From positions 1 through 64,000 of the forward strand of contig JAVJNR010000010.1 in assembly GCA_040217195.1 (NCBI GenBank): a stretch of 64,000 nucleotides of DNA, in the 5' to 3' direction. The notes under the pieces were generated by a model. The model was not told where the DNA came from. It worked only from the letters and a program-made list of their open reading frames with translations, and searched no databases. The translations under genes and the position numbers were made by a program. Shown here one piece after another: positions 10,863 to 60,367 of the stretch. The first letter of the stretch is position 1. Each line of letters begins with the position of its first letter. The DNA comes from Leptospiraceae bacterium (GTDB taxonomy: Bacteria > Spirochaetota > Leptospiria > Leptospirales > Leptonemataceae).

Positions 10863-11156
10863 TCAGTCCTCTACCGGCCGGGCGATTCCTTTTCTTGCGA
10901 GCCGGTCGATGAAGGACCGGCGGTGCCGGATGGTCCGAGTTCCAATCCTGCGGACGATACGCCTGTGCTTTCGGGGGATCAGCGGATGGCGCATGTATAC
11001 GTCCTGCTCTGCATTGCTCCAGGGATCGACCAGGTCCAGATACTCCCTGTGAACTCGTTGTTTCAGTGTTGTGACCTTGATAAGGCCCGCCGTGCGCCAG
11101 CGTGACCCGAAGGCGCCGCGCCAGAGGGCCAGGGCAAAGCAGCGGATTCGTTTCAT
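10863..11156 (-). CDS. Hypothetical basic protein
   Basis: ATGA-coupled to the endolysin, GGAGG RBS. Confidence 0.6.
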   Translation of the reverse strand: MKRIRCFALALWRGAFGSRWRTAGLIKVTTLKQRVHREYLDLVDPWSNAEQDVYMRHPLIPRKHRRIVRRIGTRTIRHRRSFIDRLARKGIARPVED

Positions 11157-40046: not shown

Positions 40047-41441
40047 ATGGCGTTTATATCACCCAGAGTTCGACTTATGGCTTACCGCCCCTTTGATAAG
40101 GAGCCAGTGGAGGTGCCTCTGGATCCGATTACAAAGATCAGCTCTAACCGGGGCTTCGGTCCCGGATCAATCAGTCTGACATTTACTCGTGGCGTGGCCC
40201 CGGGAGAAATCCGGAAGGTCATGGATCTCCTGACGGATCAGACCGTGGTCCAACTCCAGGTAAAGCGCAAGCCGGGGGATGAATGGAGACAATTAAACCT
40301 CTGCCATGTCAGTTCCGCGTCGACAACCATTCATGCGAAGGGTGAAGAATCCTGGAGCCCGGAACTGGTTACACTGGATGGAAAGCTCCAGAACCAGGTC
40401 TATTTCATCTCGTTACCCAACGGAGCAAAGAAGCTGACTCCGGAGGAGGCTGCGGGCTTGCCGGAGGGGTCATTCCCCAGGGCTTTAATGCAGTTCGGAG
40501 AGTCCTTCAAGGGTGGAGTAAAGTCGCTGAAGCGCCTGATTGAGAACTTCTGGGATGAGATCATAGTAACGCTCATGAACCCCGAGCAGTATGGCACACG
40601 GACCGTGGTTTTCGGAGGGAAACGGCTTGCAGGGCCGGTGGGTTCCGATGATGCGCTGTCGACTTTGAAAGTGTTTTCTACTCCATCCTACACCGAGCAG
40701 TTCATCTCATTCTTTAGCTTCCTGAATCAGATATCCATTGGAAATAGCCCCAATTTCTACCAGATCATCTCAAGTCTGGCCACCGCCCCGCTGTATGAGT
40801 GGTTTTTCGATCCACTCCAGGGGAACGGGGTGCTCGACGAGGAAACAAAGTACACGGTCAAGAATTCGCAGGGACTATTTATTTTCCGCAAGACCCCCTT
40901 TTTCGATTTGTTCGACCAGTCCGGCAAATGGATCGAACCGGCGGAAACAATTAAGGACATCCACCAGTTGAATTACGGCCACAAAGACTCGGACATATAC
41001 ACCGGTGTGCATGTTGGGCTTACGGCCTTTGATCTCGGGGCCAATGCAATCGTTTTCAAGCCCAAATGGTCCGGGCTTCTGGGGGCTACCCATGGCCATC
41101 GTCCACTCCAGATAAAGATGGATGGCATTAAACCGGGCGATATGGGACCGGATCAAATTACAGACGCACTCTCGAAGATTCAGGACAGGCTATTTACAAT
41201 ATTCTGCGACAGTAAAGTGCCGCGCCGCAATGCCAGCGTCTCGGCGAACTGTACTTTCGATTTCTTCCGGGTGGGACAGCCCTACAGAATAGAAGCCCCG
41301 AAATCCGCAAAGAAGGATTACGGTTCCTATGGCTATGTAACCCAGGTCAAGGACACATTCAGCATTCAGGAAGCCGAAGCCTCCAGCAGCGTATCCCTGA
41401 AATGGATTGATCGCCTATCCGGAATTCCTTCCGAGTCTTGA
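40047..41441 (+). CDS. Probable baseplate hub protein
   Basis: Size, beta-rich termini (GSISLTF; RVGQPY...YVTQVKDTF), PLYEWFFD and FRKTPF. Confidence 0.55.
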   Translation: MAFISPRVRLMAYRPFDKEPVEVPLDPITKISSNRGFGPGSISLTFTRGVAPGEIRKVMDLLTDQTVVQLQVKRKPGDEWRQLNLCHVSSASTTIHAKGEESWSPELVTLDGKLQNQVYFISLPNGAKKLTPEEAAGLPEGSFPRALMQFGESFKGGVKSLKRLIENFWDEIIVTLMNPEQYGTRTVVFGGKRLAGPVGSDDALSTLKVFSTPSYTEQFISFFSFLNQISIGNSPNFYQIISSLATAPLYEWFFDPLQGNGVLDEETKYTVKNSQGLFIFRKTPFFDLFDQSGKWIEPAETIKDIHQLNYGHKDSDIYTGVHVGLTAFDLGANAIVFKPKWSGLLGATHGHRPLQIKMDGIKPGDMGPDQITDALSKIQDRLFTIFCDSKVPRRNASVSANCTFDFFRVGQPYRIEAPKSAKKDYGSYGYVTQVKDTFSIQEAEASSSVSLKWIDRLSGIPSES

Positions 41442-41897: not shown

Positions 41898-42764
41898 ATG
41901 GAATTTACCCATCCCTGCCATATTATCAAAGCCGAAGAGAATTCCGGACGGCTGAAAGTTCTGATTCGAGCCTCCACTGAAGGAGAAGACCGGCACGGCG
42001 AGCGTGTCCTAAAGAGCGCGTTTGCAGACCCGGATATGCAACGGTCTTTTTCCAGGGAAGGCTACTACGACTACAACCACATAACAGATATTCTGGACAA
42101 ACAGATGAAAGGTGTCTCCGGCACCGAACTTGTGGAACTGCAGAAGGCCAAAGCAAGGGCGATCATTGGATATCCCGATCCCGAGAAGTCGTTGTTCGTC
42201 GGGGATGATGGCGTTTATTCCCAGGGGTATCTATTCGCAGACAATGAATACGTCCAGGAAATCCGCAAGGGTCTTGAATCCGGCTGGTCCGGCTGGGGGG
42301 CTTCGATCTCTGGTTTTGCGAGCCCGAGGGACCTGGAAGGCAACACTTTCAAGAAGATGCTCCTGAAAAAGATCGCAATCGCCCCGCTCCAGGAAGTCAT
42401 CAATCCGGATACAAGTGTTCAACTGGCCAAGTCCAAACTCGTTCAATTGCTCAAGGGTGGTGAGGACTACTACACCGAAGAACAGACGGGCGCAACCGAC
42501 ACCTTGCCCGATACAGAAATCCGTGACCAGATAATTCAGGATCTACAGATTCAGGTCGGTCGGCTCACGCGATTGGTCCTTTCGCAACCATCGATGCAGG
42601 AAGCTATCGCTCGAGAAGTGGTGGATGCGATCAAATGCGGCACCCTGCCCCTGCAACACGATCCCATAGTCAGCTTTTTGACCGATAGCTTTGGCTTTGA
42701 TACGGATTTAGCCAAGCAAGTCGCAAACGGCGTACTGCTAACAGGTAACTTCGGAGCGGCATAG
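41898..42764 (+). CDS. Prohead protease
   Basis: ASTEGEDRHGE.V, GYYDYNH, GASISG, IAIAP...INPDT; precedes scaffold and capsid genes. Confidence 0.8.
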   Translation: MEFTHPCHIIKAEENSGRLKVLIRASTEGEDRHGERVLKSAFADPDMQRSFSREGYYDYNHITDILDKQMKGVSGTELVELQKAKARAIIGYPDPEKSLFVGDDGVYSQGYLFADNEYVQEIRKGLESGWSGWGASISGFASPRDLEGNTFKKMLLKKIAIAPLQEVINPDTSVQLAKSKLVQLLKGGEDYYTEEQTGATDTLPDTEIRDQIIQDLQIQVGRLTRLVLSQPSMQEAIAREVVDAIKCGTLPLQHDPIVSFLTDSFGFDTDLAKQVANGVLLTGNFGAA

Positions 42765-42800: not shown

Positions 42801-43487
42801 ATGAAATGGGCAGAAGAATTAATTAGCAAGATTCAATCATTAAACGTTCGCAAAGCGGATGATCCGACCTCCGGCGATAAAGGCGGCGGGTCCATCGAGG
42901 ACCTGGCAATGCAGGCCGCAAACAAAATGGAAAACGGCGAAATTGAACCGGATGCAGATTCCGTTAAGGACTTCCTGGTATCTAACGGTGTCGACGAATC
43001 TGAGGCCGGAGATTTTGCCAAAGATATCATAGATGCCTATTTCTCCGAGGATGATCCGAAATCCGGCGAAGGCGACGGGTCCGGGGACAAAGGAGACGTC
43101 AACAAGTCAAAGGATCCGACCCAGGATGAAGCCAATTCGGACCAGATCCCCATTCAGAAGTCCATGGAGCGAATCGAAGAGGCCCTGAGTGTTCTCGGCT
43201 ATGGCCTTACTCATATCCTGGACGAGCTGCAGGCAACCCGCAAGGAGAATGCTGTCCTGAAAAGCCAGGTGGATGAATACCTCGGCAAGCCAGTTCGCAA
43301 GAGTACGGTTGAGCAAGTGGCCCCAGGTGCTGGCCAGGAGAGCGGCAGATCCACCTCCGAAACAAAGACCCTGATTCTGAAAGGAGTCCAGGCCGGTGAG
43401 CTTACCACTGAAGACATGACTGCCTTCGAAGTGGGCCGAGTGCTCACCGACAAAGCAAAGCAATACATCAATAAGGCAGGAGCCTGA
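42801..43487 (+). CDS. Scaffold-like acidic protein
   Basis: Between protease and capsid genes; acidic, coiled coil, many xxK[A/S] sites. Confidence 0.7.
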   Translation: MKWAEELISKIQSLNVRKADDPTSGDKGGGSIEDLAMQAANKMENGEIEPDADSVKDFLVSNGVDESEAGDFAKDIIDAYFSEDDPKSGEGDGSGDKGDVNKSKDPTQDEANSDQIPIQKSMERIEEALSVLGYGLTHILDELQATRKENAVLKSQVDEYLGKPVRKSTVEQVAPGAGQESGRSTSETKTLILKGVQAGELTTEDMTAFEVGRVLTDKAKQYINKAGA

Positions 43488-43519: not shown

Positions 43520-44941
43520 ATGAGAGAACTTAACGAACTACTGGAGATTAAGAAGGCCTTTGAGGCCAATCCGGGGATTACTGATGTGGCCGAGCTCTTT
43601 GACGGCCCGGCGCTCAGTATGCAATACATCGATGGAACCATGTCCTCCATCGTTGCAAGCGATGTTGACTTCGCTTTCCTGAACAAGCTACCGAAACGAT
43701 CGGTGGACCAGACCATTGCCGAATACAACAAAATGAAAAGCCACGGAGACTCTCCGTATCGCACTTCTTTCGTTGGGCAATCAGAGGATCCCCACTTCGC
43801 TGACGCATACCTGAAAAGAAAGTTCGATGAAATGGCGTATCTTTCGGAAGGGTTCACATACAACCGCGTAATTGCCCGAACCAGGAACACAAACGACCCG
43901 GAAATGGTATCGTCCACGTCCGCCATGCGCCGGATGCTCACTTCCCTGTCCCGGGGCCTCTGGAATGGTGACCGTGACGCCCTTTCGGTTGAAATGGACG
44001 GAATCGTTAAGAAAGTTTCCTCCCTGGGCTCGGACTTCGTTTACGATTGTCGTGGCCAACTACCCGGTGCCGACGTAATCCAGCATTTTGCAGCTCAGAT
44101 CCGAAGTAGATATTTCGGACTGGCCAACGAATTCCACATGGCCGTCGGTTCCAAAAACCTGTTTGATCAGGCAGACCTCGGTGATAAGCAGTATATTTTC
44201 CTGGATGGCCAGAATACCGGTGCAGGTCTGTATGCCAGCCGAGTTGTGGAGGGCCAGAAGGCTTCCTTCGCACTGAACAACAAGATTCAGTATGTACCGG
44301 ATCTCTGGATCGATGAAAGCAATTTCGGCGTTCCAATGGACTATGACCGGTCCACCGACTCCGTGGTCGAAAAGGCCGTAGGTGAAGCTCCTCCGGATAC
44401 CCCTGCTCTGGCGGTCGCTGCTCAGGCTCCGTCCGTACCCGGCTCCAAATGGGAGGCTGGAGACGTTGGCACCGTAGCATACCGTGTGGCCGCTGTAGGC
44501 CCTAAAGGTGCTTCTCAGGCCACAACCTCACAATCCGCCACAGTAGCCGCAAATGGAGCCGTGGAACTGACCATCACTCCGGCTGCAGGAGGCAACTTCG
44601 CAGAGGCATTCCTGATCTTCCGTGAGACAGCTCCTGGCAACGGAGATTTCCGCAAGATTGCCCGTGTAAAGCGTGCAACCAGCGGTGACACTACCTTTGT
44701 GGACGTAAATGAGACGATCCCCGGAACCAGCGTCGGTGTCCTGGGCGACTTCAATAGCCGGTCCACTTCCGACGAAACCAGAACCATGGTTCTGAGTGAG
44801 CTTATGAGCCCGCTCAAAACCACCTTCCCTCCGGGAGTTGGCGGCCTGCGACTGAACGTTGGCATGGTGGAGTATTTCACAACCATCCAGCTCTTCGCCG
44901 AAGAGAAGTTCGTCGTATTCAAGAACATGCCAGTTATCTAA
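43520..44941 (+). CDS. Major capsid protein (Herelleviridae-like)
   Basis: IKKAFEANPGITD...GPALSMQYID resembles KSFxTGYGITP...AGALRREILD; EMDGIVK; strong RBS and terminator. Confidence 0.88.
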   Translation: MRELNELLEIKKAFEANPGITDVAELFDGPALSMQYIDGTMSSIVASDVDFAFLNKLPKRSVDQTIAEYNKMKSHGDSPYRTSFVGQSEDPHFADAYLKRKFDEMAYLSEGFTYNRVIARTRNTNDPEMVSSTSAMRRMLTSLSRGLWNGDRDALSVEMDGIVKKVSSLGSDFVYDCRGQLPGADVIQHFAAQIRSRYFGLANEFHMAVGSKNLFDQADLGDKQYIFLDGQNTGAGLYASRVVEGQKASFALNNKIQYVPDLWIDESNFGVPMDYDRSTDSVVEKAVGEAPPDTPALAVAAQAPSVPGSKWEAGDVGTVAYRVAAVGPKGASQATTSQSATVAANGAVELTITPAAGGNFAEAFLIFRETAPGNGDFRKIARVKRATSGDTTFVDVNETIPGTSVGVLGDFNSRSTSDETRTMVLSELMSPLKTTFPPGVGGLRLNVGMVEYFTTIQLFAEEKFVVFKNMPVI

Positions 44942-45791: not shown

Positions 45792-46493
45792 ATGAAAACC
45801 ATCCAAAAGACTCTGAATTTCATTTTCCAGTGTCTCTGGTTTGCCATCAAGGGATTGATTCCCAGAAAGATCGGCGCCGGGGACAAGATCATTCATTATG
45901 CCCCCAGACTCGTCGTTCAGTTAATACTGTCCTATCTCGTAGGCGGTCCACGTCTCTTCCTGTTCGGAGATTCGAACAGTGAGGTAATGTCCCGCTTGAA
46001 AGTGATGATCGGTTTTGACGTGGTTGCCATTTCTGGCGGTATCGGTGGATCGAGATTGGACCAATGGGTCGATTTCTTTGAAACATGGATCGGGAAACTC
46101 GTCCTATGGCTTGTTGGCGATGCTGAAACGGTCTGCAATCTTGGCGGCAACAATGCTCTCCATCGAAAGATGAAAACGGTTCCGGAATCTGCCCGCGAAC
46201 TTCATGCGATTCGTCCGGATGCCTGGATCATCTTGATACCGCCTATTCACTTCGATTTCTTTTCCATTCTGGTTCAACCGAAACAACTCAGAAAGGATAT
46301 CGAAAAAATCAACAAGGAACTACGCAAAGAGTACAAACCTCGAATTATCGATCCAGAGCCCCTGGTGGACAAAGACGAGAACGGCGAACCGGATCCAGGT
46401 TCACTGAAGGATGCGGTACATTATGCAGACCGGCTTGTCTTTGAGATTCAGACTGTAATCGAGCTTACTGCCCTGGCCGAAGTGGACCGATAA
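45792..46493 (+). CDS. SGNH/GDSL-family hydrolase
   Basis: FGDSNS, GIGGS, LGGNN and DAVH blocks. Confidence 0.8.
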   Translation: MKTIQKTLNFIFQCLWFAIKGLIPRKIGAGDKIIHYAPRLVVQLILSYLVGGPRLFLFGDSNSEVMSRLKVMIGFDVVAISGGIGGSRLDQWVDFFETWIGKLVLWLVGDAETVCNLGGNNALHRKMKTVPESARELHAIRPDAWIILIPPIHFDFFSILVQPKQLRKDIEKINKELRKEYKPRIIDPEPLVDKDENGEPDPGSLKDAVHYADRLVFEIQTVIELTALAEVDR

Positions 46494-46517: not shown

Positions 46518-49500
46518 ATGCGTCGGAAATTCCTGCAAGTGTTGAAAGAACGGATGGGGGCTGCCATGGCAGGCCCCCGCTCCAGAGCGCACCTCATTCG
46601 CAAGGTCATCACAAACCGGCGGGGCCACAAGCAAACAGTATACGTCAGGCCAGACAAGGCCGGAAGCCCACCTTCTGCCACTCGAAAACCATCACAGTCT
46701 TCATCCTCTGTCGCGGAGGCTCGAAAGGAGTTTCAAAGAGCCGATGCAGAATTCAGTGCAGCGCTGGAAGAGGCCTATGGCAAGCAAGCGGGAGACAAGC
46801 GGTATTCTCCGGGTCCCCATCCACCTGCAGTAGAGGCTGCAAAGAAGAAACGGATGGAGGCCCAGAAGAAGTGGCATGCGGCACAAGACCAGGCTCGGGC
46901 TTCAGGAAAGGATCCTCTATCCGGGGCACCTGTTGAATCCGAGCAGTCAGAAGCCTCAAACAAAGAGAAGCCGGCGCCGAGTGATGGAGAGGGCAAGACA
47001 GCTTCCGATCCCCCGCCAACCGTCCTCTCCTTCGTTGGTCATGATCAGATCCGGGAGCTGTCTCAGTACACAGACAAGCGCAACTACGATAGAAAGACTA
47101 TCGATGGCATCAAGGCCAGCATCTTGCGGAATGGTTACAATCCGGCCTTTCCTCTCCAGGTCGATACAGACAACGGAACCTACAATATCGTTTCGGGGCA
47201 CCACCGATTCACAGCGGTAAAGGAACTGGTCAGCGAAGGGAAACTACCGGACAACTTTCAGATTCCCGTCATCGTAAAGCAGTATGGAAGCAAAGGCGAC
47301 CGACTAATGGCGCAAATGTCGGAGAATGTTCGCCGCACTGTCAATCCATTGGATGAGGCCCGGGCCATCGGAGAGCTAACCGAGATGGGCCACAGTGTTT
47401 CAGAAATCGCAGAAAAGACCGGAATGAATCCGGGAACTGTCCGGCGACGCAAAGCATTGACCGGGCTGCACAGTGACCTTCAAAAGCTGATCGAGAAAAA
47501 GGACCGAAGTCTGCCCGTAGGTATCGCGGAAGCGATCGGAACTCATGGCCTGAATCCAGACGGGTCTAAAAACGCAACCATCCAGAACAAGGCCCACCGA
47601 TTCTACAATGCCAACCGACATCGTGGATTCGGAGCTGCTGAAGTGATTAGCTACATGCAGGAGCTCAAGTCGCAGAACTCCGATCAAATGTGGTCCGTAG
47701 ATGAAACCCGTACGGAAGCCGAGAAGCAGGCCGTCCAGAGCCTCGGTTCAGAAGAAAAGGCAAAGCGGAACACAGCGCAAATAGACAAGTTCCTGGATAA
47801 CGTACAGAATTCGTTTCAGCGCCTTCTCGGGGACTCTATTGGCTCTCTAAACGAGTCCACTCTCAAAGAACTCTCCAACAGCCTCCTGGCCACGGAAGGC
47901 GAGTCCGGGTTTCGCTCAAAAATGGATCAGCTATCGACACTGATGAACGACCTGGAGACAGTCAAGCGTACTCTCGAGCAGAATTTCAATAAGATCAAAG
48001 AGGAATCATCGAACCATAGTCTCGCATTCGCCCGATCAATGGCAGTGATTGAAGCCAGCCAGGACGCCATTCATGTTCTAAAGTCGGTCCATCGAGAGAC
48101 AGGGGTAATCGATAAAACCAGATTTCTGGAAGTCCTCAAGGCCAAAGCCAAAGGCAAATCGGCGAGGAATCGCGCTCACCTCGTGCGCAAGGTAATAACC
48201 AACAAGAAGGGTCACAAACAGACAGTATACGTGAATCCCGATGAAACCAACCAGGCTCAGGCGGAACAAATCGGGGAGTTCACTCTGAAACGCAGAGGGA
48301 AATTCATCGATGTCCTCGGGAATCTCTTCAAAGAATCCGGCCTGTACATGGCCTTGAATTCTCTAACCGGCAAGAAGGGGAAGCCTATCGAAGGAGAAAA
48401 CGATCAGGGTAGCATTGGTGCTACTTACCCTTACTCAGTCGCTAACTATAAAAAGATCCGGGAGCAGTTGCTGGGAGTTTCCAGGGGGCCTGCCGACAAC
48501 CGAGAGCAGGATTTGAGCCCTGCGGATGTCAGGAATATACCGGATGAGATAGAGTCGGAAGTCAAGGGAGATAAAGCACGATCCCTCTGGAAGCGGGCGT
48601 CCGAGCGATTCCCGAACCTGGATGCCGGAACTTTTGTGGATCATCTGGTTGAGTATTTGCTCCACCGTGACAAATACGAAGACCTTTTTTCGCAACATAG
48701 CCTCTTCCAGGAGCCATCGGAAACTCCGGCGAACTCTGCAAAGGACTCGGGCTCGAAAGGAACGGTTAGCACTCCGAACCCAGCACCGTTCCGGAAAGAT
48801 TTGCTTCGCTTCATCCATGAGCAATGGTCCGAATCGATCCAGAGCGATCCTCGTTCAATAGAGAAGGCTGAAGCAAGGTATAATGCAGCAGAACGGGACC
48901 TTGAAGAGTCCGCCCGGGAAGCCTACGGGAATCGTTCCAGCGACATGCTGGAATACGCAAACTCCAGGGTGCATCCTCCAGAAGTTCAGGAAGACCTGGA
49001 TCAACGCAACGAAGCTCGGGTCTCTCTCCTGGAAACAAGGAAGGAGTCTCAGATTCGAGAATCCCGCATAAGGGCAAGCGTCGAAACAGGTAAAGCACGG
49101 GTCGGCGTTAAGACTCAGCATGCAATCAATGAAGAGGTCCGACAGATCCTGAAATCTGTGCCACCGGAAAAGATGACCGAGGAGCAGAAGGAACTCCTTC
49201 GTCAGTACGAAGGCTGGGGCGGGCAGACCCGAAATGATAAAACGGATTACTCCGGCAAGGGACTTCTTTATGAGTTCTATACTCCTGAGAAGGTCGTAAA
49301 CAAGTCCTGGGAGCTATTGAAGAGATATATCCCCAAAGGGAGCAAGATTCTCGAACCCGCTGCCGGGACCGGACGATTCGCAGAGGGACGATCAGACTAC
49401 AGTTTCGACATGCTGGAGGTAGACGGCACATCAAGCCAGATTGCCGGTATTCTGCACCCGGATGCAAATGTCCGGAAGGGTCAATTCGAAGAGCTGTTCC

Positions 49501-52500
49501 TGGATAATCGGAACCGATCCAAGAAGCAATACGATGGTCCTCTGTACGATGCCGTGGTAACGAACCCGCCCTACGGCGAAATGGGAGGAAAATACAAGGC
49601 ATCCGAAGGTCGAGGCTGGCAGCGCTATGAGGAATACTTCCTCCATCGCTCCCTCGACACCGTGAAGGAAGGCGGCATAGTTGCCATGGTCGTTCCTTCC
49701 AATTTTCTCCGAAAGGGGAAAACCAAAGCAAAGGAGAAGATATTCAACAAAGCAGAACTCCTGGAAGCCCACCGATTGCCGAATGGCGCTTTTGCCCATA
49801 CGGACATCGGCACGGATCTGATCATACTTAGAAAGAATACTACAGCGCACAAAGACAATGCGATTGCCTTCGGGGATGAATACTTCAAGCGGAACCCGAA
49901 TCATCTTCACGGAGAAGAGTTTGAGACGACAGATCGCTGGGGCAAGCCAGACCTGCGGACAAAGGGCAATATAGATACCTTTCTGAATCATAGACCGGCG
50001 GCCCCGAAGGAAATGTCAAAAGCCCACAAGGATGCAATCTCCAGGGGATTGATCGGAAACCAGAACGCAAAGGGGAAGCACAAGGTAGCCAGTTCAAACC
50101 GGAAGACGGTTAAGAAGAAAGCCGTCCGAAATGCGACGAGAAAAACGAAGAACACGGCGAGAGAAAAGCAGAGTCCTCCCCCGAAGCTCCTGAATCAGGC
50201 GGAGTTCAACAAGAAATACGGGCTGAACTTCAGCGAGTCGGATGTCGAATTGCTGAAAAGCACCAATGCTCTCGGATACATTGACCCCGAGACGCCATTC
50301 GATCCGAAGTCGATGTCATTCCACAATGGCGGTGCAATGCCCGACTACCTGTATGCCACTGGCGATATCTATGAGAAATTGAATCAGCTGGAATCGGACA
50401 GAGAAGAGATCATCGAGAAAGGTGGCCTGCAGCTATACCAGAAGCAGCGCCAGATGCTGGAAGAAGCCATTCCGGAGCAAACCCCGCTGAAGGACGTCGT
50501 TCTGGATCCAATCGACCCTTTCTTCAAGACAGTCACCCTGGAAGACGGAAGTTCCCTTCTCGACCGGTTCAAGGAATGGGTCGGTGATCTGGACTACGAG
50601 ACCTTTATGGACTACGCGGCCTCAGCCAGCGACGTTCGGGCCTACTGTGATGCCATACCTGTCCGGGGCAACAACAAGAGCCTGAATGAGAGGATCCGGC
50701 GAGAACGCCGGGAATTGGCAATGAAGCTGGCAGACAGGTTCGTCAAGGAATCCCTGGGTGAGGCCGAGCAGAGTCAGATCCAGCAGGCCTGGAATGAACG
50801 CTTCAACGCCTACGTTCAGGTGGATCCGGCGAAGGTGCCGATTCCGATTGAGGGATTGAATGAAAAGTTCAAGGGTAAAGACTATGAATTGAGGGATGTC
50901 CAGCATCGATTCATTGCAAATTTCCTTTCAAAAGGAATCGGTTGCGCAGCCCACGAGGTGGGGCTGGGCAAGACCATGACCGGCATTATTGCCACAGTCT
51001 CCAATATGCAAATGGGACGGTCGAAGAGGCCTCTGTTCGTGGTCCCAACCTCAGTATTACCCAATTGGGAGGCCTCCGTTAAATCGCTTTATCCAAATCT
51101 CACGGTGAATACAATCGGCACCCCCGAACTGAATCAAATGACCGAAGGCGGCAAGAAACTCGAGATCGAAGAAGGGTCGGTGACTGTAATGTCTTACGAT
51201 GCGTTCCAGAGGATGGGCTTCAGCGAAGAGCGATTCAATGAACTCACAAAAGACCTCCAGGATGCTCACAAGCCCTATGCAGAAGAACCGGCCACCAAGC
51301 GAGGGAAGGCAAAGAAAGAGGAGGAATATGAAGCCCTGGCATCGAGAGCGAGAACGGGTACGTATAATGAAATACTATTCGACGAAGCGGGCTTTGACTC
51401 TCTGACCGTGGACGAAGCGCACAACTTCAACAATATCTTTGCTGACGTAAAACAGGAGAAGGATCAAGACACCGGGAAGGTCAAGACCCAGGCAAATGAA
51501 TTCTCCGGTATCATTGGAGGGGCGACGAGCGACCGCGGGCTAAAAATGTGGCTGGCAGCCCAGCACGTGCTCAAGTCCAACGACAACCGCAATGTGATGA
51601 TGCTCACAGCCACTCCCTTTACGAACAATCCGCTTCAGGTCTACTCCCTACTCTCCACGATGGCCAGGGAACGCCTCCAGAAGATGGGGATCTACAACGT
51701 AAAGGATTTCGTGGCGGCCTTTGTAGAGACTCAGACCGAAAAGGTACTGGAGCCCAACGGAAAAATCAAAGAGAAACAGACGGTCCGCCGTTTCAAGAAT
51801 GCCCATGCCTTTGCCTCGCTAATCAATGAATTCTTCGATCGAAAGACCGGAGAGGATGCGCATATCAAGCGGCCGGACCTGGTAGAGAAGGAGATCGTTC
51901 TTCCTTCTAACAGGGAAATGGATCAGATCCGCCAGAGCCTGGAGAACTATTACGATATGGCTTTCCACCCCGATCCCGATGAGCGAGATCCCTCCGCTGC
52001 ACTAAGGTCCATGACCATGCAGCAAAACCTGAATATCAGTCCGGCCCTCGTAAACGACTATCAATTCAACGATAACCGACAGGATTTCGTCGAACGCAGT
52101 CCCAAAATGAAATTTGTGGCCAAATCCGCTGCAGAATACTACAAACGGATGAAGGAAGCCCAGGGGAATGCTCCGGGCCAGATCATCTTTCTACCCCGAG
52201 GGGTTGAGTATTTCAATGAAGTGAAGGCTTACATGGTTTCCCAGGGAATCCCGGAGGATGCCATCGAGATCATGACTCCCAAGGAGAAAGGGAAAAAGGC
52301 CAGGAGCAAGGAAGCAAAGGCGAAGGGGCAAAGTCGATTCGAAGAAATCAAGTTCGACTTCAATGATCCGAATGGCAAAACGAAAATCATAATTGGCTCC
52401 GATACGATCCAGGAAGGAGTATCCCTCCAGAAAAATACGGGGGTCATGTATAACTGCAGCCTGGCATGGAATCCGACCTCGAACGAACAAAAAAAGGGCC

Positions 52501-53300
52501 GTGGATGGCGCCAGGGGAACACCCAGGAGCGTTGCCACATGTTCTACCCGGTCATGGAGAACTCCATCGACACAAAGCTGTACCAGAAGCATGCCGAAAA
52601 GGTTTCCCGAATCAACGATATCTTTAAGGCAACTGGATCCCCTTTCATCGAAACCACGGACATCAATCCTGATGAGCTGAAATACGAGATCGTGACCGAC
52701 CCGGAGAAAAAGGCCAGGCTGGTTGCATCGGAAGATGAGACGCAGCGTCTGGCCGCCATCAAGGATAAGACCACCGACCGGAACATTCTCCTATCAACCC
52801 TGAATCGAGCAGAAAATCTGGACCGACGCATTAGGGATGCGGACGAGTCACTGAAGCGGTCGCAGCGCTGGGCCGAAATGTACGGCAAGAACTCGACCCT
52901 TGGCCGCTTCCACGCGGAGGATGTAAACCGCATCAGATCCAGACTCAGTCGATTGAAGCGCGACAAAGAAGAGCATGAGACAATGATGCAGCAGAAAGGC
53001 CTGACCGTGGAGAAGCTCCGTTCTCAAGCGGAGGCTCTGGAAAAAGAGATCGCTCAAATGAAAGCAGATTCAACCAAAAAGAAGGAAGAGCTTGAATCAG
53101 AACTGGTAGAGCGCTACCGACGAGAAAAAGAAGAGTATGAGAAGAGCCGTCCAAACAAATCCATCGACCAGATGGTAGATGAGCATGTCTCAAAGCTGGT
53201 TGACTCTTCCCTCGGGAAGTCGGTATACAAGAGCCGAATATACAGGTTGATTCGTGAAGGAAGAACACATGAACGCAGACATCAAGCAGCAGCTCTTTGA
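46518..53300 (+). CDS. DarB-like polyvalent protein: ParB/Srx + N6-adenine methyltransferase + SNF2 helicase
   Basis: IVSGHHRF...ENVRR; YEGWGG, EFYTP, LEPAAGTG, NPPY; HEVGLGKT, VDEAH, LTATP, GRGWRQGN. Confidence 0.9.
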   Translation: MRRKFLQVLKERMGAAMAGPRSRAHLIRKVITNRRGHKQTVYVRPDKAGSPPSATRKPSQSSSSVAEARKEFQRADAEFSAALEEAYGKQAGDKRYSPGPHPPAVEAAKKKRMEAQKKWHAAQDQARASGKDPLSGAPVESEQSEASNKEKPAPSDGEGKTASDPPPTVLSFVGHDQIRELSQYTDKRNYDRKTIDGIKASILRNGYNPAFPLQVDTDNGTYNIVSGHHRFTAVKELVSEGKLPDNFQIPVIVKQYGSKGDRLMAQMSENVRRTVNPLDEARAIGELTEMGHSVSEIAEKTGMNPGTVRRRKALTGLHSDLQKLIEKKDRSLPVGIAEAIGTHGLNPDGSKNATIQNKAHRFYNANRHRGFGAAEVISYMQELKSQNSDQMWSVDETRTEAEKQAVQSLGSEEKAKRNTAQIDKFLDNVQNSFQRLLGDSIGSLNESTLKELSNSLLATEGESGFRSKMDQLSTLMNDLETVKRTLEQNFNKIKEESSNHSLAFARSMAVIEASQDAIHVLKSVHRETGVIDKTRFLEVLKAKAKGKSARNRAHLVRKVITNKKGHKQTVYVNPDETNQAQAEQIGEFTLKRRGKFIDVLGNLFKESGLYMALNSLTGKKGKPIEGENDQGSIGATYPYSVANYKKIREQLLGVSRGPADNREQDLSPADVRNIPDEIESEVKGDKARSLWKRASERFPNLDAGTFVDHLVEYLLHRDKYEDLFSQHSLFQEPSETPANSAKDSGSKGTVSTPNPAPFRKDLLRFIHEQWSESIQSDPRSIEKAEARYNAAERDLEESAREAYGNRSSDMLEYANSRVHPPEVQEDLDQRNEARVSLLETRKESQIRESRIRASVETGKARVGVKTQHAINEEVRQILKSVPPEKMTEEQKELLRQYEGWGGQTRNDKTDYSGKGLLYEFYTPEKVVNKSWELLKRYIPKGSKILEPAAGTGRFAEGRSDYSFDMLEVDGTSSQIAGILHPDANVRKGQFEELFLDNRNRSKKQYDGPLYDAVVTNPPYGEMGGKYKASEGRGWQRYEEYFLHRSLDTVKEGGIVAMVVPSNFLRKGKTKAKEKIFNKAELLEAHRLPNGAFAHTDIGTDLIILRKNTTAHKDNAIAFGDEYFKRNPNHLHGEEFETTDRWGKPDLRTKGNIDTFLNHRPAAPKEMSKAHKDAISRGLIGNQNAKGKHKVASSNRKTVKKKAVRNATRKTKNTAREKQSPPPKLLNQAEFNKKYGLNFSESDVELLKSTNALGYIDPETPFDPKSMSFHNGGAMPDYLYATGDIYEKLNQLESDREEIIEKGGLQLYQKQRQMLEEAIPEQTPLKDVVLDPIDPFFKTVTLEDGSSLLDRFKEWVGDLDYETFMDYAASASDVRAYCDAIPVRGNNKSLNERIRRERRELAMKLADRFVKESLGEAEQSQIQQAWNERFNAYVQVDPAKVPIPIEGLNEKFKGKDYELRDVQHRFIANFLSKGIGCAAHEVGLGKTMTGIIATVSNMQMGRSKRPLFVVPTSVLPNWEASVKSLYPNLTVNTIGTPELNQMTEGGKKLEIEEGSVTVMSYDAFQRMGFSEERFNELTKDLQDAHKPYAEEPATKRGKAKKEEEYEALASRARTGTYNEILFDEAGFDSLTVDEAHNFNNIFADVKQEKDQDTGKVKTQANEFSGIIGGATSDRGLKMWLAAQHVLKSNDNRNVMMLTATPFTNNPLQVYSLLSTMARERLQKMGIYNVKDFVAAFVETQTEKVLEPNGKIKEKQTVRRFKNAHAFASLINEFFDRKTGEDAHIKRPDLVEKEIVLPSNREMDQIRQSLENYYDMAFHPDPDERDPSAALRSMTMQQNLNISPALVNDYQFNDNRQDFVERSPKMKFVAKSAAEYYKRMKEAQGNAPGQIIFLPRGVEYFNEVKAYMVSQGIPEDAIEIMTPKEKGKKARSKEAKAKGQSRFEEIKFDFNDPNGKTKIIIGSDTIQEGVSLQKNTGVMYNCSLAWNPTSNEQKKGRGWRQGNTQERCHMFYPVMENSIDTKLYQKHAEKVSRINDIFKATGSPFIETTDINPDELKYEIVTDPEKKARLVASEDETQRLAAIKDKTTDRNILLSTLNRAENLDRRIRDADESLKRSQRWAEMYGKNSTLGRFHAEDVNRIRSRLSRLKRDKEEHETMMQQKGLTVEKLRSQAEALEKEIAQMKADSTKKKEELESELVERYRREKEEYEKSRPNKSIDQMVDEHVSKLVDSSLGKSVYKSRIYRLIREGRTHERRHQAAAL
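46584..46655 (+). repeat. Shared 24-aa module, copy 1
   Basis: RAHLIRKVITNRRGHKQTVYVRPD. Confidence 0.95.
48171..48242 (+). repeat. Shared 24-aa module, copy 2
   Basis: RAHLVRKVITNKKGHKQTVYVNPD. Confidence 0.95.
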
Positions 53301-53475
53301 AGCAGTGCAGGTTGATTTCCCACACCTGGCGAGTCTGGGGCCGGATAGGGTCTACGATTCCCTATCCGCAATTTGTATGCAGGAGGGGAAGCCAGTAACG
53401 GTTGAACAAATGCTCCAATACGCAGTGATTCTGGACAACGACCTGGAGATGGACGATCTACAGACCGGAGACTGA
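53269..53475 (+). CDS. Small acidic hypothetical protein
   Basis: AAGGA RBS; overlaps the end of the 2260-aa gene. Confidence 0.65.
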   Translation: MNADIKQQLFEAVQVDFPHLASLGPDRVYDSLSAICMQEGKPVTVEQMLQYAVILDNDLEMDDLQTGD

Positions 53476-53487
53476 ATCGACAGATGC

Positions 53488-53518
53488 CCGATAGCCGTTT
53501 TCCGGCTATAACGGGTCC
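53488..53518 (+). promoter_or_regulatory. Putative leaderless late promoter
   Basis: CCGAT-N14-TATAAC-N6-ATG. Confidence 0.72.
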
Positions 53519-54937
53519 ATGAATGGCATTCATATTCTCAAGGCGGCCAACAGAGCCCATCTGGTCCGCAAAGTCATTACGAATAAGAAAGGCCGCCGCC
53601 AGACCGTTTACGTAAACCCGGAACAAGAAAAGTCGAAAGAAAAAGGTCGAGGCCAGTCTGGTAAGGCATCCGAAAAAAAGACCGGTGACAAGGAAGCCGG
53701 ATCTTCCCGCCCCAACCAGTCTACCCATAACAAAGAATCTCAACCCAGGAACAACGCGCCCGAGAAGAGCGGACAGAATAAAGAGGGCACCCGGAAGAAA
53801 CCGAAAGAACGTAAGTACAAAGACCCGGGGGTTAATCAGATATGGGCTCCTGCCGATGTTGAGGCAGCCAAGGCCCAGGCATTCTACAACATTGTAACCG
53901 ACCCGGACATAGGTGATCCGATACCCCGCCCGGGTCGCTGGAATGAGGGGATTCCGGAGGGGATGCCCTCCGAAACCTGGGAAGAGCACTTCACCGGCCA
54001 TCCAGATGAAGGTGGAGAGCCTAAAGAAAGTCGTGAGTTTCTTCACAAAGTAATCAAGCAGAGATTTCTTGAAGGGAAACCTTCTGTGCCGTCCGGTGAG
54101 AAACCGGTTGCAATAATGATGATGGGTGGCCCGGCATCCGGCAAGTCGACCATGGTTAAGTCCGCTGGCCTGGGTAGTATGGAGGATTTCGTTGTCGCCG
54201 ATGCTGACGCAGTGAAGAACATGATTCCGGAATATCGCGTCGGTGTGAACAACCGATTGAAGCAGGCTGCATCAATGGCACATGAGGAATCCAGCTATCT
54301 GGTGAAGCAGATCCGGGAAGAGGCGATCAATGCCCGGAAGAATCTGGTTATTGATGGTACCGGCTCAAAGACCGCTTCCTACGAAAAGAACATCAAGAAG
54401 CTTCGGGACCAGGGATACGAAATCCAACTGATGATGGCAGATACCCCGATGGATGTGGCCCTGGATCGAGCCAAGCAACGTGCAAGAAAAACCGGCAGAT
54501 ATGTTCCGGATGATGTGCTCAAAGATGCCTATGCAGGGATTCCGAACGGGTTCCAGAAGATCGCAGAGATGGTTGATTCTGCAGCCATCTATGATACAAA
54601 CGTGAAGCTGGGAGAGCCTTCACGGCTTGTCTATACAAAGACGAATGCCGCTGAAACCATCCATGACTCCGAGCACTATTCGAAGTTCCAGAGTAGGATC
54701 GGAAAGTCCTGGCTGTTTCAGATCATCAAGTCCAGACTCTCCCGTGAACAACGAATTGCTGTAACGAAGGGAGGAGAAGATATGCAGGAGAAGAAGCAAA
54801 AGCGAACCGATGACGAGCTACTACAGGCAATGGCCCGCGACGAATGGGACTTCACCGAAGAAGAAATGAAACGAATTGAGGCCATGGAAGACGTGGCGGA
54901 CGAAGGGGAAGGAGTGGAAATGGTAGTGGATGACTGA
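53519..54937 (+). CDS. Zeta-toxin-like P-loop kinase with the N-terminal shared module and an acidic tail
   Basis: MGGPASGKST, DADAVK..IPEY, HEESS, NLVIDGT, R...TGRYVP, YDTN. Confidence 0.88.
   Translation: MNGIHILKAANRAHLVRKVITNKKGRRQTVYVNPEQEKSKEKGRGQSGKASEKKTGDKEAGSSRPNQSTHNKESQPRNNAPEKSGQNKEGTRKKPKERKYKDPGVNQIWAPADVEAAKAQAFYNIVTDPDIGDPIPRPGRWNEGIPEGMPSETWEEHFTGHPDEGGEPKESREFLHKVIKQRFLEGKPSVPSGEKPVAIMMMGGPASGKSTMVKSAGLGSMEDFVVADADAVKNMIPEYRVGVNNRLKQAASMAHEESSYLVKQIREEAINARKNLVIDGTGSKTASYEKNIKKLRDQGYEIQLMMADTPMDVALDRAKQRARKTGRYVPDDVLKDAYAGIPNGFQKIAEMVDSAAIYDTNVKLGEPSRLVYTKTNAAETIHDSEHYSKFQSRIGKSWLFQIIKSRLSREQRIAVTKGGEDMQEKKQKRTDDELLQAMARDEWDFTEEEMKRIEAMEDVADEGEGVEMVVDD
53552..53623 (+). 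repeat. Shared 24-aa module, copy 3
   Basis: RAHLVRKVITNKKGRRQTVYVNPE. Confidence 0.95.
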
Positions 54938-54987
54938 ACCCACTGCCATGGATTTATCCGCTTGAATGATGGAATAGGTTATCCGAC

Positions 54988-56439
54988 ATGTTTGGTCTTG
55001 AAAGCCTTATTAACATACTGAAAGCTCGCGGCGCAGCTCTTGGTGAGATCCACCATTGGGCCAATGGCGATTATATGAAAACTCCGCAGGGCTGGAAGGA
55101 AGTCAAGAAAGACGTCCGGAAGCATCTGGACAAGCTCACAAAACGTATGGCTCCCGCAGACGAGAAGGCCCGCGAACACCGCTTCGCCATGGAGGACCTG
55201 AAGTCCAGGATTGACGGGATCAAGAGCAAACTCAGCGAGCACCCCGATTCAGATTACTACAAAAATGAGCTCAAAGAGGCGGAGAAGCGGCTGATTTTCC
55301 ACAGCGTAAAAGCGGAACAGGTTGGAGGACGTGCCCGGCGCCGGGCCGAGGACTACCTGGATAAGGTTCGCGAGTACCTGAAAGACCATCACGAAACTCA
55401 CATAAACGCCAAGTATGCCGATGCACTGAGAACGTTGGATGAACGGATGGCTTCACTTGAAGAAGGTGGGGATCGTCACAATGAAATAATGGAAAAGCAT
55501 CGAAAGCTGGTAGGCTCTGAATACGAGGATGAGGACGATGCTGAGTCAGCAGCAGAAGATGAGATAGAGATCGAAAGGGAGACGATAGAGGAGAAGCAAA
55601 CAGACCTTCACGACCTGATCTGGGAGAAGGTTGGAAACCGCCATGACCAGATCGATGACCGGTTGGACAAACTGTTGGAGGACAGTGCAGACGACACGCG
55701 GGAAGCGTTTGAAATGCGCCTGGATGACTTCGAGGAAATCAAAGCCCGCTATCCAACCAGCGTAGACCGGGATCCGGATACTCCGATGAGCAAGGTAAGG
55801 GAGAGAATCCGGAAGAATCTCGGTTTTCGCAAAAGGCTGGCCGACAGACTGAACCTGAAATCCAATCTGGGCCGAATGCTCGCAGTATTCAAAGCCGGAA
55901 ACCGGCAGGGTCTTGTGAAGAAGGTCATAACCAATCAGGCAGGCCACCGGCAGACGGTCTGGGTTCGGCCGGACGAAAGCCCCGGCCCTCGCCCCGTAAA
56001 AAAGGATAGTGGCCCATCCTCCAAAAAACCCGGTGCAGGCTCAGTAAAGCGCACAATGGCGCCCCAGCGCGGCGGAATGCCGTCCAAGAAGCCCATGGCG
56101 GCAAAACCGCCCGAAGATCATGTTGTTGTCCAGCAGCGGCATGAGGATTTTGAGAAACGAGCACGGGAGCAGCGAAAACGCAAAGGACCCAATGCAAGCG
56201 TGGAGTCAGCCGATGCTGGCGATATAGTGCAGATTACCAACCCGAAATCCAGAGTACGCAACCAGATAGGGAAAGTGGTTCAGAAACTGGAGGACGGATT
56301 GAAGGTAATGATGGCCAACGGGATTTTCCAGGACTTCACTTTCGATGAACTGGCCTTCGCGAAGTCCCGGCCGCTCGGATTTCGACCGGATGGACTGCAG
56401 ATCCTAAAAGCCCGTATCGAAACCCGATCCGAGAATTGA
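54988..56439 (+). CDS. Multi-module protein: coiled-coil/acidic core, shared module, KOW-like C-terminus
   Basis: ILKARGAALGEIHHWANGDYMKTPQGW; GDIVQITN...QIGKVV. Confidence 0.8.
   Translation: MFGLESLINILKARGAALGEIHHWANGDYMKTPQGWKEVKKDVRKHLDKLTKRMAPADEKAREHRFAMEDLKSRIDGIKSKLSEHPDSDYYKNELKEAEKRLIFHSVKAEQVGGRARRRAEDYLDKVREYLKDHHETHINAKYADALRTLDERMASLEEGGDRHNEIMEKHRKLVGSEYEDEDDAESAAEDEIEIERETIEEKQTDLHDLIWEKVGNRHDQIDDRLDKLLEDSADDTREAFEMRLDDFEEIKARYPTSVDRDPDTPMSKVRERIRKNLGFRKRLADRLNLKSNLGRMLAVFKAGNRQGLVKKVITNQAGHRQTVWVRPDESPGPRPVKKDSGPSSKKPGAGSVKRTMAPQRGGMPSKKPMAAKPPEDHVVVQQRHEDFEKRAREQRKRKGPNASVESADAGDIVQITNPKSRVRNQIGKVVQKLEDGLKVMMANGIFQDFTFDELAFAKSRPLGFRPDGLQILKARIETRSEN
55903..55974 (+). repeat. 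Shared 24-aa module, copy 4
   Basis: RQGLVKKVITNQAGHRQTVWVRPD. Confidence 0.9.
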
Positions 56440-58381: not shown

Positions 58382-58592
58382 GCAGAAGGCGGAGCAGGCG
58401 CAGGACAAACCCAGGGAACCTGCGAAGCAAACAGCGAAGCGGCGCAAATACCCGCCCATGGAGCAATTCCTGACGGACCTTGAAAAGAAAAAAGGTCCGA
58501 TCCCGGCCAAAGTAAAGGAAGTATTCCGCGCCCGTTGCGGATCCCGCAAGGACTTCGAAGCCGTATGGGCCGAACTCTGGAGAGGTAAGTAA
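58371..58592 (+). CDS. Small hypothetical protein
   Basis: AAGGAG RBS; TAATG-coupled to the sheath gene. Confidence 0.65.
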   Translation: MASEQKAEQAQDKPREPAKQTAKRRKYPPMEQFLTDLEKKKGPIPAKVKEVFRARCGSRKDFEAVWAELWRGK

Positions 58593-60367
58593 TGCCAACA
58601 AGAACAGTAGAATTTTTAGGACGCGGATTCATTGTTCCAGGATCTTACTCCGCATTCCGCGCCAAACCACAGTCCGGCGGCATCTCTCCGGACTTCAATA
58701 CGCAAATACTGATCGGCGAAGCGAACAACGGTTGGAACGCCCTGGATACCAGCCTTCCCATGCTCAAGCGAGTGATGGAATTCACTTCCTTTGAGGAAGC
58801 CAAGCAGGTTCTGGTTTCCGGTCCGCTACTCGATGCCATCAAAGCTGCCTTCTCTCCTTCCAGGGATAGCAGATTCGCCGGTGGTCCGTTGCTTATTCGA
58901 GCACTGAATCTGGCGGTCAATACCAGGGCCTCCGCAAGTCTGGATAACACCGCTGCGTCCCAATACTCCGCTAAGTATGTTACTCCCGGTCCCCGGGGCA
59001 ATGAGTCTCGAATCAGGATCTCGGCTGCAGGCGATTCAGTAGAGGTCGGCGACTCCAATGGCATCCAATCTGCTACCGGCCTCGATGCCCAGGATATTAC
59101 AATCACATACAGCGGAGACGCTACCACAGCAGAGCTTTCCTTTGATGGATCCAACCTTACAACAACTCTCACCGGCCAGACCGATGGGACCGAAAACCTT
59201 GATATTCCGGTCGATAGCGTTCCAACCCTGGCCGACCTGGCCGTCCGCATCAATTCGATGGCCGGTTACAATGCCGTTGTCGATAGTTCACCGGATATTC
59301 TCACCAGAAACCTGGACCATGTAAGTGGAGTCGATGCCAAGGCCGGGGCAGTGATTAAGGCCCTGCTCTACCGGCAGGAACAGGTTCTATTCAATCTCGG
59401 AAACATTGAGCTGGAGGTTACCGGAGCCAGGGAGCCCCTGGCGGATACGGTAGGATTCATATACCTCTCTGGTGGAGCATCGACTGCAGCCCAGCCCACG
59501 GACTACACAGATGCAATCGATATGCTGGAGAAGGTTCGAGGCTTCTTCATCAACCTCTGTTCCACCAATCAAGGTGCCGGGGCTTATCTCACGGATTTCA
59601 TCATCAAGTCCAACGGACCGGAAGGAGCCGATGAACGGTTCGGAGGATTCGGAGCCGACCGTACCGACGATTTCACTACCCGGTGCGACAACGCAAAGCA
59701 GATCAACAGCGAATACATGGTCTACGGCCTTTCCCCGGTAACTGTTCGAGGGGCAGACGGTATCACCACAAAGACCTATGATGGATGGCTCCTGGCAGTA
59801 ATCCACAATGCAATCAAAGCATCCTCAAACATGCGGGAATCCGCCCTCTACAAGGATCTGAACATTGAAGATGCGCCGGAGATCCCTGGAACCGGGGACA
59901 TCCGCAGAGCCATCCGGTCTGGAGGCCTTGTTGTGGATCGCAAACCGAACAATGGTCCATTCAAGATCAAATCGGACGTCACCACCTATCAAGCAACAAA
60001 TCAGATCCTGAACAAAGCATCAACCACATGCACGGCCCTCGCCCTGAACAAGGACCTGCGAGAATCTCTTCAGGATGCCTTTCTCGGTGAAGTACCAACG
60101 GATCCGGATGCCTTCGGGACAACTCTCACGGATTCAGACATTCGCACTTTCATCGAGCTGAAATTCGACCAGGACTACGTCCGGAACTTCGGATGGCTAA
60201 CCCGTAACGTATATACCGGTCAGCCAGCGTGGAGGCGCGACTTCCTTATCAGGCGCGACGGCAACGCAATCTACTTCGAGTTCCCGGACGGGAAGCTCGT
60301 CACGTCGCTCGATTACATTTTCAGCCTGCTCAATCTGGACGTTGTCCGGGGGAGCGCGCAATCATAA
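58592..60367 (+). CDS. Tail sheath protein
   Basis: IVPGSY, ILIGEANNG...FTSFEEAKQVLVSGPLLDAI, LSGG, DVTTY; Twort/K-like. Confidence 0.9.
   Translation: MPTRTVEFLGRGFIVPGSYSAFRAKPQSGGISPDFNTQILIGEANNGWNALDTSLPMLKRVMEFTSFEEAKQVLVSGPLLDAIKAAFSPSRDSRFAGGPLLIRALNLAVNTRASASLDNTAASQYSAKYVTPGPRGNESRIRISAAGDSVEVGDSNGIQSATGLDAQDITITYSGDATTAELSFDGSNLTTTLTGQTDGTENLDIPVDSVPTLADLAVRINSMAGYNAVVDSSPDILTRNLDHVSGVDAKAGAVIKALLYRQEQVLFNLGNIELEVTGAREPLADTVGFIYLSGGASTAAQPTDYTDAIDMLEKVRGFFINLCSTNQGAGAYLTDFIIKSNGPEGADERFGGFGADRTDDFTTRCDNAKQINSEYMVYGLSPVTVRGADGITTKTYDGWLLAVIHNAIKASSNMRESALYKDLNIEDAPEIPGTGDIRRAIRSGGLVVDRKPNNGPFKIKSDVTTYQATNQILNKASTTCTALALNKDLRESLQDAFLGEVPTDPDAFGTTLTDSDIRTFIELKFDQDYVRNFGWLTRNVYTGQPAWRRDFLIRRDGNAIYFEFPDGKLVTSLDYIFSLLNLDVVRGSAQS

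Follow-up and report, generated by a model that had tools for sequence, protein, structure and literature searches.

A short peptide element, which we call the tag, occurs four times in three proteins encoded by the first 64,000 nucleotides of contig JAVJNR010000010.1 from a Leptospiraceae bacterium; this whole 64-kb stretch is referred to below as the window. The tag is predicted to be a basic β-hairpin, and it recurs in a wide range of phage proteins whose genes lie beside those for the phage head. We propose, at a probability of roughly 60%, that it is a portable tag that marks cargo of the phage head, is retained after a cut by the head protease and is delivered with the DNA. The four copies, each located by both a regular expression and a profile, are:

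46584..46655, forward strand: tag copy 1, residues 23-46 of a 2260-residue protein, near its N-terminus
48171..48242, forward strand: tag copy 2, residues 552-575 of the same 2260-residue protein
53552..53623, forward strand: tag copy 3, residues 12-35 of a zeta-like kinase, predicted to form a β-hairpin
55903..55974, forward strand: tag copy 4, residues 306-329 of a 483-residue protein

Scanning all six frames of the window with the expression [RK]KVITN..G..QTV[YW]V.P[DE] recovered the strict motif four times, always on the forward strand and only in the frames of three open reading frames (ORFs). A profile built from the four copies picked out exactly these four places in the whole 4.6-Mb genome. 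A first-pass annotation, made from the letters alone, had placed copies at 46584, 48171, 53552 and 55903, and both searches agree with it. Chance is excluded as the source of the four-fold motif. Compared in pairs, the 72-nucleotide cores share 57-72% identity as DNA and 62-88% as protein, and depending on the pair the codons differ at 55-81% of the identical residues; copies 2 and 3, for example, have 21 residues in common and use a different codon at 17 of them. Because identical residues stand mostly in different codons, the peptide and not the DNA is what has been conserved, which points to selection at the peptide level and agrees with the divergence at synonymous positions that had been remarked on before. 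The same codon differences led us to reject a recent duplication of DNA as the origin of the copies.

The genes for the three proteins that carry the tag belong to a prophage, in which they come after the capsid genes and before the gene for the tail sheath:

46518..53300, forward strand: DarB-like polyvalent protein, 2260 residues (Pfam, PHROG, BLASTP to P1 DarB)
53519..54937, forward strand: zeta-toxin-family kinase, 472 residues, with an N-terminal leader, site and tag (Zeta_toxin, E 6.8e-33)
54988..56439, forward strand: 483-residue protein with an internal tag and three I/V-L/F-K-A motifs (ORF translation)

The largest of them reads, in order, leader, tag, ParB-like/helix-turn-helix part, tag, N6-methylase (N6_Mtase) and SNF2 helicase, so that copy 2 sits between the ParB-like part and the methylase-helicase part. 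Judging by its sequence, it is a true homologue of P1 DarB, to which it aligns over three regions of the methylase and helicase (BLASTP E 1e-31, 2e-23 and 1e-10); it also matches phrog_10089 (E 1.4e-67). Its ParB-like, N6_Mtase and SNF2 parts and its place between capsid and sheath genes are those of a polyvalent protein of the phage type. The kinase scores 114 bits against a curated Pfam Zeta_toxin cut-off of 22.3, and its best PHROG, phrog_16619, is annotated 'minor head protein'. Pfam and PHROG scans placed the 483-residue protein in no known family.

The tag spans about 26 residues with the consensus x-D/N-R-S-H-L-V-K-K-V-I-T-N-K-x-G-H-K-Q-T-V-W-V-x-P and is followed by a disordered, often lysine-rich linker; behind the copies in the window, the linkers are polar and rich in proline, lysine and serine, as the annotated low-complexity stretches had suggested. 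In the 161 instances drawn from the survey described below, Leu(-3), Lys(0), Ile(+2), Gly(+7), Val(+12) and Val(+14) vary little or not at all, and the disordered tail is enriched in lysine. We considered a low-complexity artefact and rejected it, since specific positions are invariant. An AlphaFold2 (AF2) model of the kinase N-terminus, built on a 35-row alignment, assigns residues 16-21 and 27-32 to the two strands of a hairpin (predicted local distance difference test, pLDDT, 88-96), and the tag is thus predicted to be a basic β-hairpin.

This hairpin matches no named domain in Pfam, the PHROGs or the PDB, in line with the first-pass annotation, which had recognised none. In the three window proteins, the tag falls outside every Pfam and PHROG match, and the Pfam LPD families likewise gave no match. 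PHROG scans of 23 short tag-bearing sequences (20 small proteins and 3 window segments) found no family over the tag; a search of the PDB with the tag profile returned only chance matches of 9-11 residues (E >= 0.17), and the ESM Atlas gave no usable match. Searches of open-access papers and bioRxiv preprints on capsid targeting, cargo, portals, prohead proteases and packaged anti-defence proteins turned up no description of the tag, and full-text open-access searches with motif strings returned irrelevant matches only.

To gauge how far the tag extends, a 30-column profile of the four copies was searched against 1.84 billion protein cluster representatives. It matched 186 of them at E<=1e-3, 12 at <=1e-10. 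Counts of cargo, portals and register given here rest on the best 150 of the 186, among which 147 are genuine and together hold the 161 tag instances; the other three (P0078, P0106, P0124) are low-complexity repeats. Pfam families, scored at E<=1e-4 with up to 5 listed per protein, are present in 56 of the 150 and absent from 94. They include Zeta_toxin, InPase, ART-PolyVal, ART, RadC/JAB, Topoisom_I (topoisomerase IB), S-AdoMet_lyase and 2_5_RNA_ligase2, together with LPD1, PBECR2/3, SNF2 with N6_Mtase, Phage_lysozyme, DUF6908, DUF5856, SAP and DUF7717. This is the outcome for which the profile search had been suggested, namely matches on diverse cargo domains. Many of the small proteins consist of little beyond the tag and one domain. 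The families listed for the 150 include no MuF domain and none that belongs to conjugation, such as ArdC or relaxase, and a 59-residue tag query found no match among the 72,556 plasmids of PLSDB. A word-indexed protein search gave 10 matches, named only 'hypothetical protein' or 'predicted kinase', and the matches of a genome-contig scan with strict patterns were confined to close relatives.

Portal proteins account for 16 of the 150 representatives, 13 from the lambda family and 3 from the Mu family. In all 16 the portal domain comes first and the tag follows on its C-terminal side, often with more domains behind it. Altogether the tag occurs with at least three portal families.

In 14 viral loci, tagged genes form clusters beside those for terminase, portal or capsid. 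Five small tagged genes are present in one locus, where four of the five separate the large terminase from the portal (L007:4972-7672), and another has six in succession, flanked by a DarB-like helicase on one side and by scaffold and capsid genes on the other (L016:3356-10372). A tagged protein is encoded directly after the portal in L017 and by the second gene after it in L009 and L014, and giant tagged polyvalent proteins occur in L010 and L012/L013. As a side observation, arrays of four to six successive small tagged genes, as in L016 and L007, resemble a variable cargo cassette. The capsid type of the window was found only in L015, L016 and L018; phmmer could not link the head proteins of the other loci to those of the window, and the tag therefore crosses head lineages. 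The first-pass annotation had proposed a portable packaging or DNA-tethering tag on interchangeable effectors, in phages with one type of capsid and protease. The cargo families, the head-gene context and the portal proteins bear out the portability; the tie to one head type does not hold.

One cultured carrier was found, the Bordetella phage vB_BbrM_PHB04 (L044, NC_047861.1, 24889-49065). Its gp034 (YP_009792700.1), whose gene directly follows that of the portal, carries the tag (32.7 bits) downstream of FFKA and a RelA/SpoT-like domain at its end. The effector-type genes after the PHB04 portal encode gp034, a phosphohydrolase, a phosphatase, the InPase gp028, a DarB-like product (a 2097-residue 'DNA methyltransferase'), a Ulx-like protein and a large helicase, and within this run only gp034 is tagged. 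When a 59-residue query was compared with named phages by tblastn, PHB04 was the only match (E 0.04), and the tag was then confirmed by profile; the 30-residue tag itself matched no named phage in such a search. Two loci chosen by cargo homology, from Bacteroides phage BS162P1 and cyanophage PSS2, have no tag. The sole named-phage match to the tagged protein P0102, in Myxococcus phage Mx1, covers only the cargo part (residues 177-286).

The position of the tag within proteins follows a strict register. In 23 proteins it stands at the very N-terminus, with the methionine 1-8 residues ahead of the invariant leucine (5-6 in 15 of them). In 71 instances the end of a hydrophobic-x-K-A/G motif is found 1-12 residues ahead of the same leucine (5-6 in 42). 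Because methionine starts and the upstream motif lie at like distances, the start of translation and the putative cut appear to define one and the same N-terminus. Hydrophobic-x-K-[AGS] is located 3-8 residues before the leucine in 74 of the 126 instances with room upstream (59%), compared with 4.9% at random positions in the same proteins; in this slot hydrophobic-x-E is enriched twofold, and small residues without lysine are not enriched. One further locus recovered in pattern scans is again of the K-A type. The motifs that accompany the tag in the window, three of which (VLKA, ILKA and VFKA, ahead of the three copies other than the one near an N-terminus) had been noticed before and are plain in the translations, are:

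46539..46550, forward strand: VLKE, end of the leader, residues 8-11 of the 2260-residue protein, a weaker candidate site
48132..48143, forward strand: VLKA ahead of copy 2, at an atypical distance (12-residue Lys/Gly/Ala spacer)
53534..53545, forward strand: ILKA, candidate protease site, separated by 5 residues from the invariant leucine of copy 3
55015..55026, forward strand: ILKA in the N-terminal leader, residues 10-13 of the 483-residue protein
55885..55896, forward strand: VFKA, candidate protease site 5 residues before the invariant leucine of copy 4
56401..56412, forward strand: ILKA near the C-terminus, 8 residues from the end of the 483-residue protein

Copy 1 lies 14 residues after VLKE, and the spacer between VLKA and copy 2 varies in length among close relatives. 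The position of the terminal ILKA of the 483-residue protein suggests C-terminal trimming, as has been reported for T4 Alt.

Three head genes upstream of the tagged proteins share the same motif:

41898..42764, forward strand: candidate prohead protease with an assemblin-like fold (alignment, AF2, Foldseek)
42801..43487, forward strand: acidic scaffold-like protein, 228 residues, with 7 hydrophobic-x-K-[AGS] motifs, one at residues 16-19
43520..44941, forward strand: major capsid protein (phrog_752, E 3e-97), whose conserved FEAN comes right after I-K-K-A (residues 10-13)

Of 6 head-interior proteins, 5 (the protease, the scaffold, the capsid protein, the kinase and the 483-residue protein) have hydrophobic-x-K-[AGS] in their first 22 residues, as against 1 of the 51 other ORFs of the window, a comparison between groups that were picked after the pattern had been seen. 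The protease has 6 such motifs in 288 residues. In all four phages with the capsid type of the window, the conserved segment that opens the mature capsid region (FEAN, LEAN or LTTG) is immediately preceded by x-K-A, and the L015 protease and the L016 scaffold likewise carry hydrophobic-x-K-[AGS].

The protease candidate has no Pfam match. It has 29 homologues, many in Leptospira prophages, one of which UniRef names 'XkdF domain'. An alignment of 20 sequences (19 homologues and the window protein) shows Lys11, His61, Ser136 and Glu166 to be invariant and Phe3, His5, Ile9, Ala12 and Lys187 to be conserved in >=90%. The family thus has an N-terminal motif F-x-H-P-x-x-I-x-K-A (homologues P0160-P0187) and a lysine about 10 residues past the catalytic core. 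AF2 predicts a confident core at residues 16-178, and the disordered segments 1-15 and 179-204 hold both conserved lysine motifs; from alignment and model, the N-terminal I-x-K-A (residues 9-12) and the Lys187 linker are candidate self-cleavage sites, similar to the processing at both ends that has been discussed for T4 gp21. The best Foldseek matches of the model are all herpesvirus assemblins, with probabilities of up to 0.99. Herpesvirus assemblin cuts after alanine in hydrophobic-x-Ala contexts, among them a Tyr-Val-Lys-Ala release site. That site resembles the hydrophobic-x-K-A of the window, and the protease model matches assemblin structures best, although sequence identity is 10-15% and the fold scores are modest. 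A predicted complex of protease residues 13-288 with a leader-site-tag peptide scored 0.04 against a mark of 0.32 and counts neither way.

We interpret these patterns as follows. The tag would mark proteins that travel in the capsid of tailed phages and enter the host along with the phage DNA. The hydrophobic-x-Lys-Ala motif would be the cut site of the head protease, and the tag would form the second half of a site-plus-tag unit. Cleavage would take off a short leader or split a polyprotein into its modules, so that each piece of cargo would begin with the tag and have the N-terminus that is encoded elsewhere directly after the start methionine. The retained tag could then serve as a handle, its cationic hairpin and tail binding the acidic scaffold core during assembly and DNA afterwards, and cargo held on DNA would leave the capsid together with the genome. 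Portal fusions make sense as site-plus-tag units: they would need no address to enter the head, yet each released module would start with the tag. As its partner, a generic polyanion, first acidic scaffold and then DNA, is most likely because of the charge of the tag, its lysine-rich tail and its constancy across unrelated heads. Its recognition by the portal channel is possible.

Several points weigh against this interpretation. Cleavage, encapsidation and the binding partner of the tag are all steps that we infer. Open-access literature yielded no virion proteomics for PHB04 or any other tagged protein. By the strict rule, 67 of the 161 instances have neither a methionine start nor the K-A/G motif. 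Other clades carry LLSEA, YFE or xFA in the upstream slot; by analogy these resemble other protease specificities, either the L/I-x-E rule of T4 gp21 or a small residue at P1, and this looser classing of upstream residues was made post hoc. Copies 1 and 2 are spaced atypically from their upstream motifs, at 14 and 12 residues. The Foldseek scores of the protease are weak (best E 3.9e-3, template-modeling score 0.28-0.42). Finally, hydrophobic residues are conserved on both faces of the hairpin, which could point to a buried position in a protein partner instead of contact with DNA; they could equally reflect a hairpin that is stable on its own.

Since the tag starts right at the predicted P1' position, the hairpin might instead be a prime-side exosite ligand that positions the bond for the head protease, in which case cargo may enter the prohead bound to the protease and the tag would have no later role. 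An assemblin-like protease fold is common to tailed phages and could explain how one tag serves many head lineages. However, at least 20 proteins start with the tag directly after the methionine and offer nothing to cut, and upstream residues vary by clade while the tag is constant, which would be odd for a single enzyme pocket; we regard this explanation as possible, if unlikely. A little less probable still is that the hairpin binds DNA in the infected cell and keeps effectors on the incoming phage DNA, unrelated to loading into the capsid. The strongly basic hairpin with its lysine-rich tail would suit such a role, SAP domains follow the tag in two portal fusions, and DarB-type protection acts on incoming DNA. 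Yet cargo with no DNA-related activity is tagged as well (zeta kinase, lysozyme, RelA/SpoT). Conjugation domains and plasmids, moreover, lack the tag in the surveys above, though conjugative elements share cargo domains with phages according to one survey (PMC5512222).

The sequence pattern also speaks to whether the hairpin conveys any address at all. It always lies between disordered linkers at module borders, as a mere structural linker or cap between shuffling phage domains, spread by recombination, would do. A linker of that kind would hardly keep several positions invariant or nearly so across 161 instances and unrelated head lineages, hold a strict N-terminal register or be joined to a single domain in so many small proteins, and we consider this the least probable of the alternatives. 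A bolder version of the cargo reading takes the hairpin as a pan-phage export label that the protease exposes and that a partner common to tailed phages, either packaged DNA or the portal channel, reads to decide both loading and first exit. This version is tentative.

The capsid-targeting sequence (CTS) of phage T4, to which the first-pass annotation had likened the tag, provides one close comparison. In T4 the gp21 protease cuts after L/I-x-E, and the CTS is found on IPI-III and Alt; gp21 itself carries a motif resembling a cut site close to its N-terminus and is trimmed at its C-terminus, while the scaffold undergoes many cuts and a piece is taken off the N-terminus of the capsid protein (PMC9026906). 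Like the tag, the CTS is a short N-terminal element on unrelated, injected head proteins and is coupled to a prohead-protease site, and both T4 and the window have a protease with a site-like motif near its own N-terminus and a scaffold rich in sites. The analogy therefore holds for a shared tag joined to a protease site and fails for position: the CTS, of about 10 residues, lies upstream of the cut and is removed, whereas the hairpin lies downstream of the candidate site and would be kept. In a CTS the conserved part precedes the site, and in the window only the short leaders would fit that description. The site types also differ (x-E in T4, x-K-A in the window), and on the same account the CTS is confined to T4-like phages, whereas the sequence of the tag is constant across different portal and capsid families.

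The comparison with P1 DarB, also made in the first-pass annotation, stands. The large window protein is a DarB homologue by BLASTP, and the P1 study reports that DarB is packaged in the virion through its N-terminal 30 residues, which suffice to load a reporter (PMC9024508). The cargo is thus homologous, and in both cases the signal is N-terminal on the cargo. The same study found no consensus among the Dar proteins (PMC9024508), whereas the tag consensus is common to three window proteins and 147 of the 150 best representatives. The tag profile scored under 5 bits everywhere in the first 20 kb of P1, darB included, and in sequence the tag does not resemble the DarB N-terminus (first 30 residues). 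The tagged proteins also share their cargo (InPase, ART-PolyVal, PBECR, RadC, LPD1, Zeta, 2H/ligase and SNF2-methylase), their head-gene context and their portal fusions with the phage-type polyvalent proteins and the portal- or MuF-fused effectors of Iyer et al. 2017; in the portions of that paper we draw on, domains and metallopeptidase processing are described, and neither the hairpin nor an upstream head-protease site is (PMC5512222).

Encapsulins offer a further comparison, since their cargo-loading peptide is a short conserved element that directs diverse cargo into an HK97-fold shell. These peptides are mostly C-terminal and extended, bind the shell protein directly and, unlike the tag, are not hairpins.

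The window, the first 64 kb of one of 10 contigs in the genome, holds an integrated temperate myovirus-type prophage. This follows from the PHROG family matches past about 10 kb, which are of phage type. Besides the genes listed below, they include an SLT transglycosylase, RusA, ParB-like, methylase, RecT with exonuclease, anti-repressor, repressor and baseplate genes. The window opens with part of an AcrB/RND transporter, and the phage therefore integrated beside a host gene; the left end of the prophage falls somewhere between about 2.4 and 9.7 kb. The landmarks are:

7-1641, forward strand: C-terminal half of an AcrB/RND transporter, the first ORF of the window (Pfam ACR_tran, E 2e-115)
14920-16632, reverse strand: small and large terminase (PHROG matches)
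about 41.9-46.5 kb: head module (PHROG matches)
58592-60367: tail sheath gene (PHROG match)

Pfam and PHROG scans recognised no portal gene of this prophage within the 64-kb window. An ORF upstream of the head module (40047-41441, forward strand) encodes a 464-residue protein of phrog_3862, a family with no assigned function, and its L015 homologue adjoins the sheath gene; we rejected it as the portal because nothing in the family scans supports that role. Near the terminase genes, a 580-residue protein with the polyvalent-protein-associated LPD3 domain (E 6e-14; 11767-13509, reverse strand) lacks the tag and neighbours an SLT lytic transglycosylase (11153-11722, reverse strand). This LPD3 protein may be further head or tail cargo that is loaded by another route. 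A 233-residue protein whose N-terminus is hydrophobic and which shows a weak GDSL-lipase-like match (E 0.027; 45792-46493, forward strand) directly precedes the tagged giant protein in the window and directly follows it in the related phage L015 (L015:15986-16729).

Tagged phages are not peculiar to this genome. The tag set was found in 9 of 156 genomes of the order, the present one included, and five of the six other species-level genomes of the genus (G035-G040) have three or four tag matches each. This type of phage is therefore a regular resident of the genus.

That phages inject proteins together with their DNA is established, and the known labels, the T4 CTS and the DarB N-terminus of P1, are phage-specific and share no common sequence. 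A single conserved tag would provide a sequence rule for listing effectors carried in the head, many of them candidate anti-defence enzymes. It would also offer a handle for studying how proteins leave the capsid and could become a general loading tag for phage particles, and PHB04, as a cultured carrier, offers a test system. Hydrophobic-x-Lys-Ala/Gly/Ser, for its part, is a suggested cutting rule for a little-studied branch of assemblin-like head proteases. If the hairpin were indeed an export label common to tailed phages, the injected proteome of uncultured phages, new anti-defence enzymes included, would be readable from sequence, and one tag could address foreign proteins to many different phage heads.

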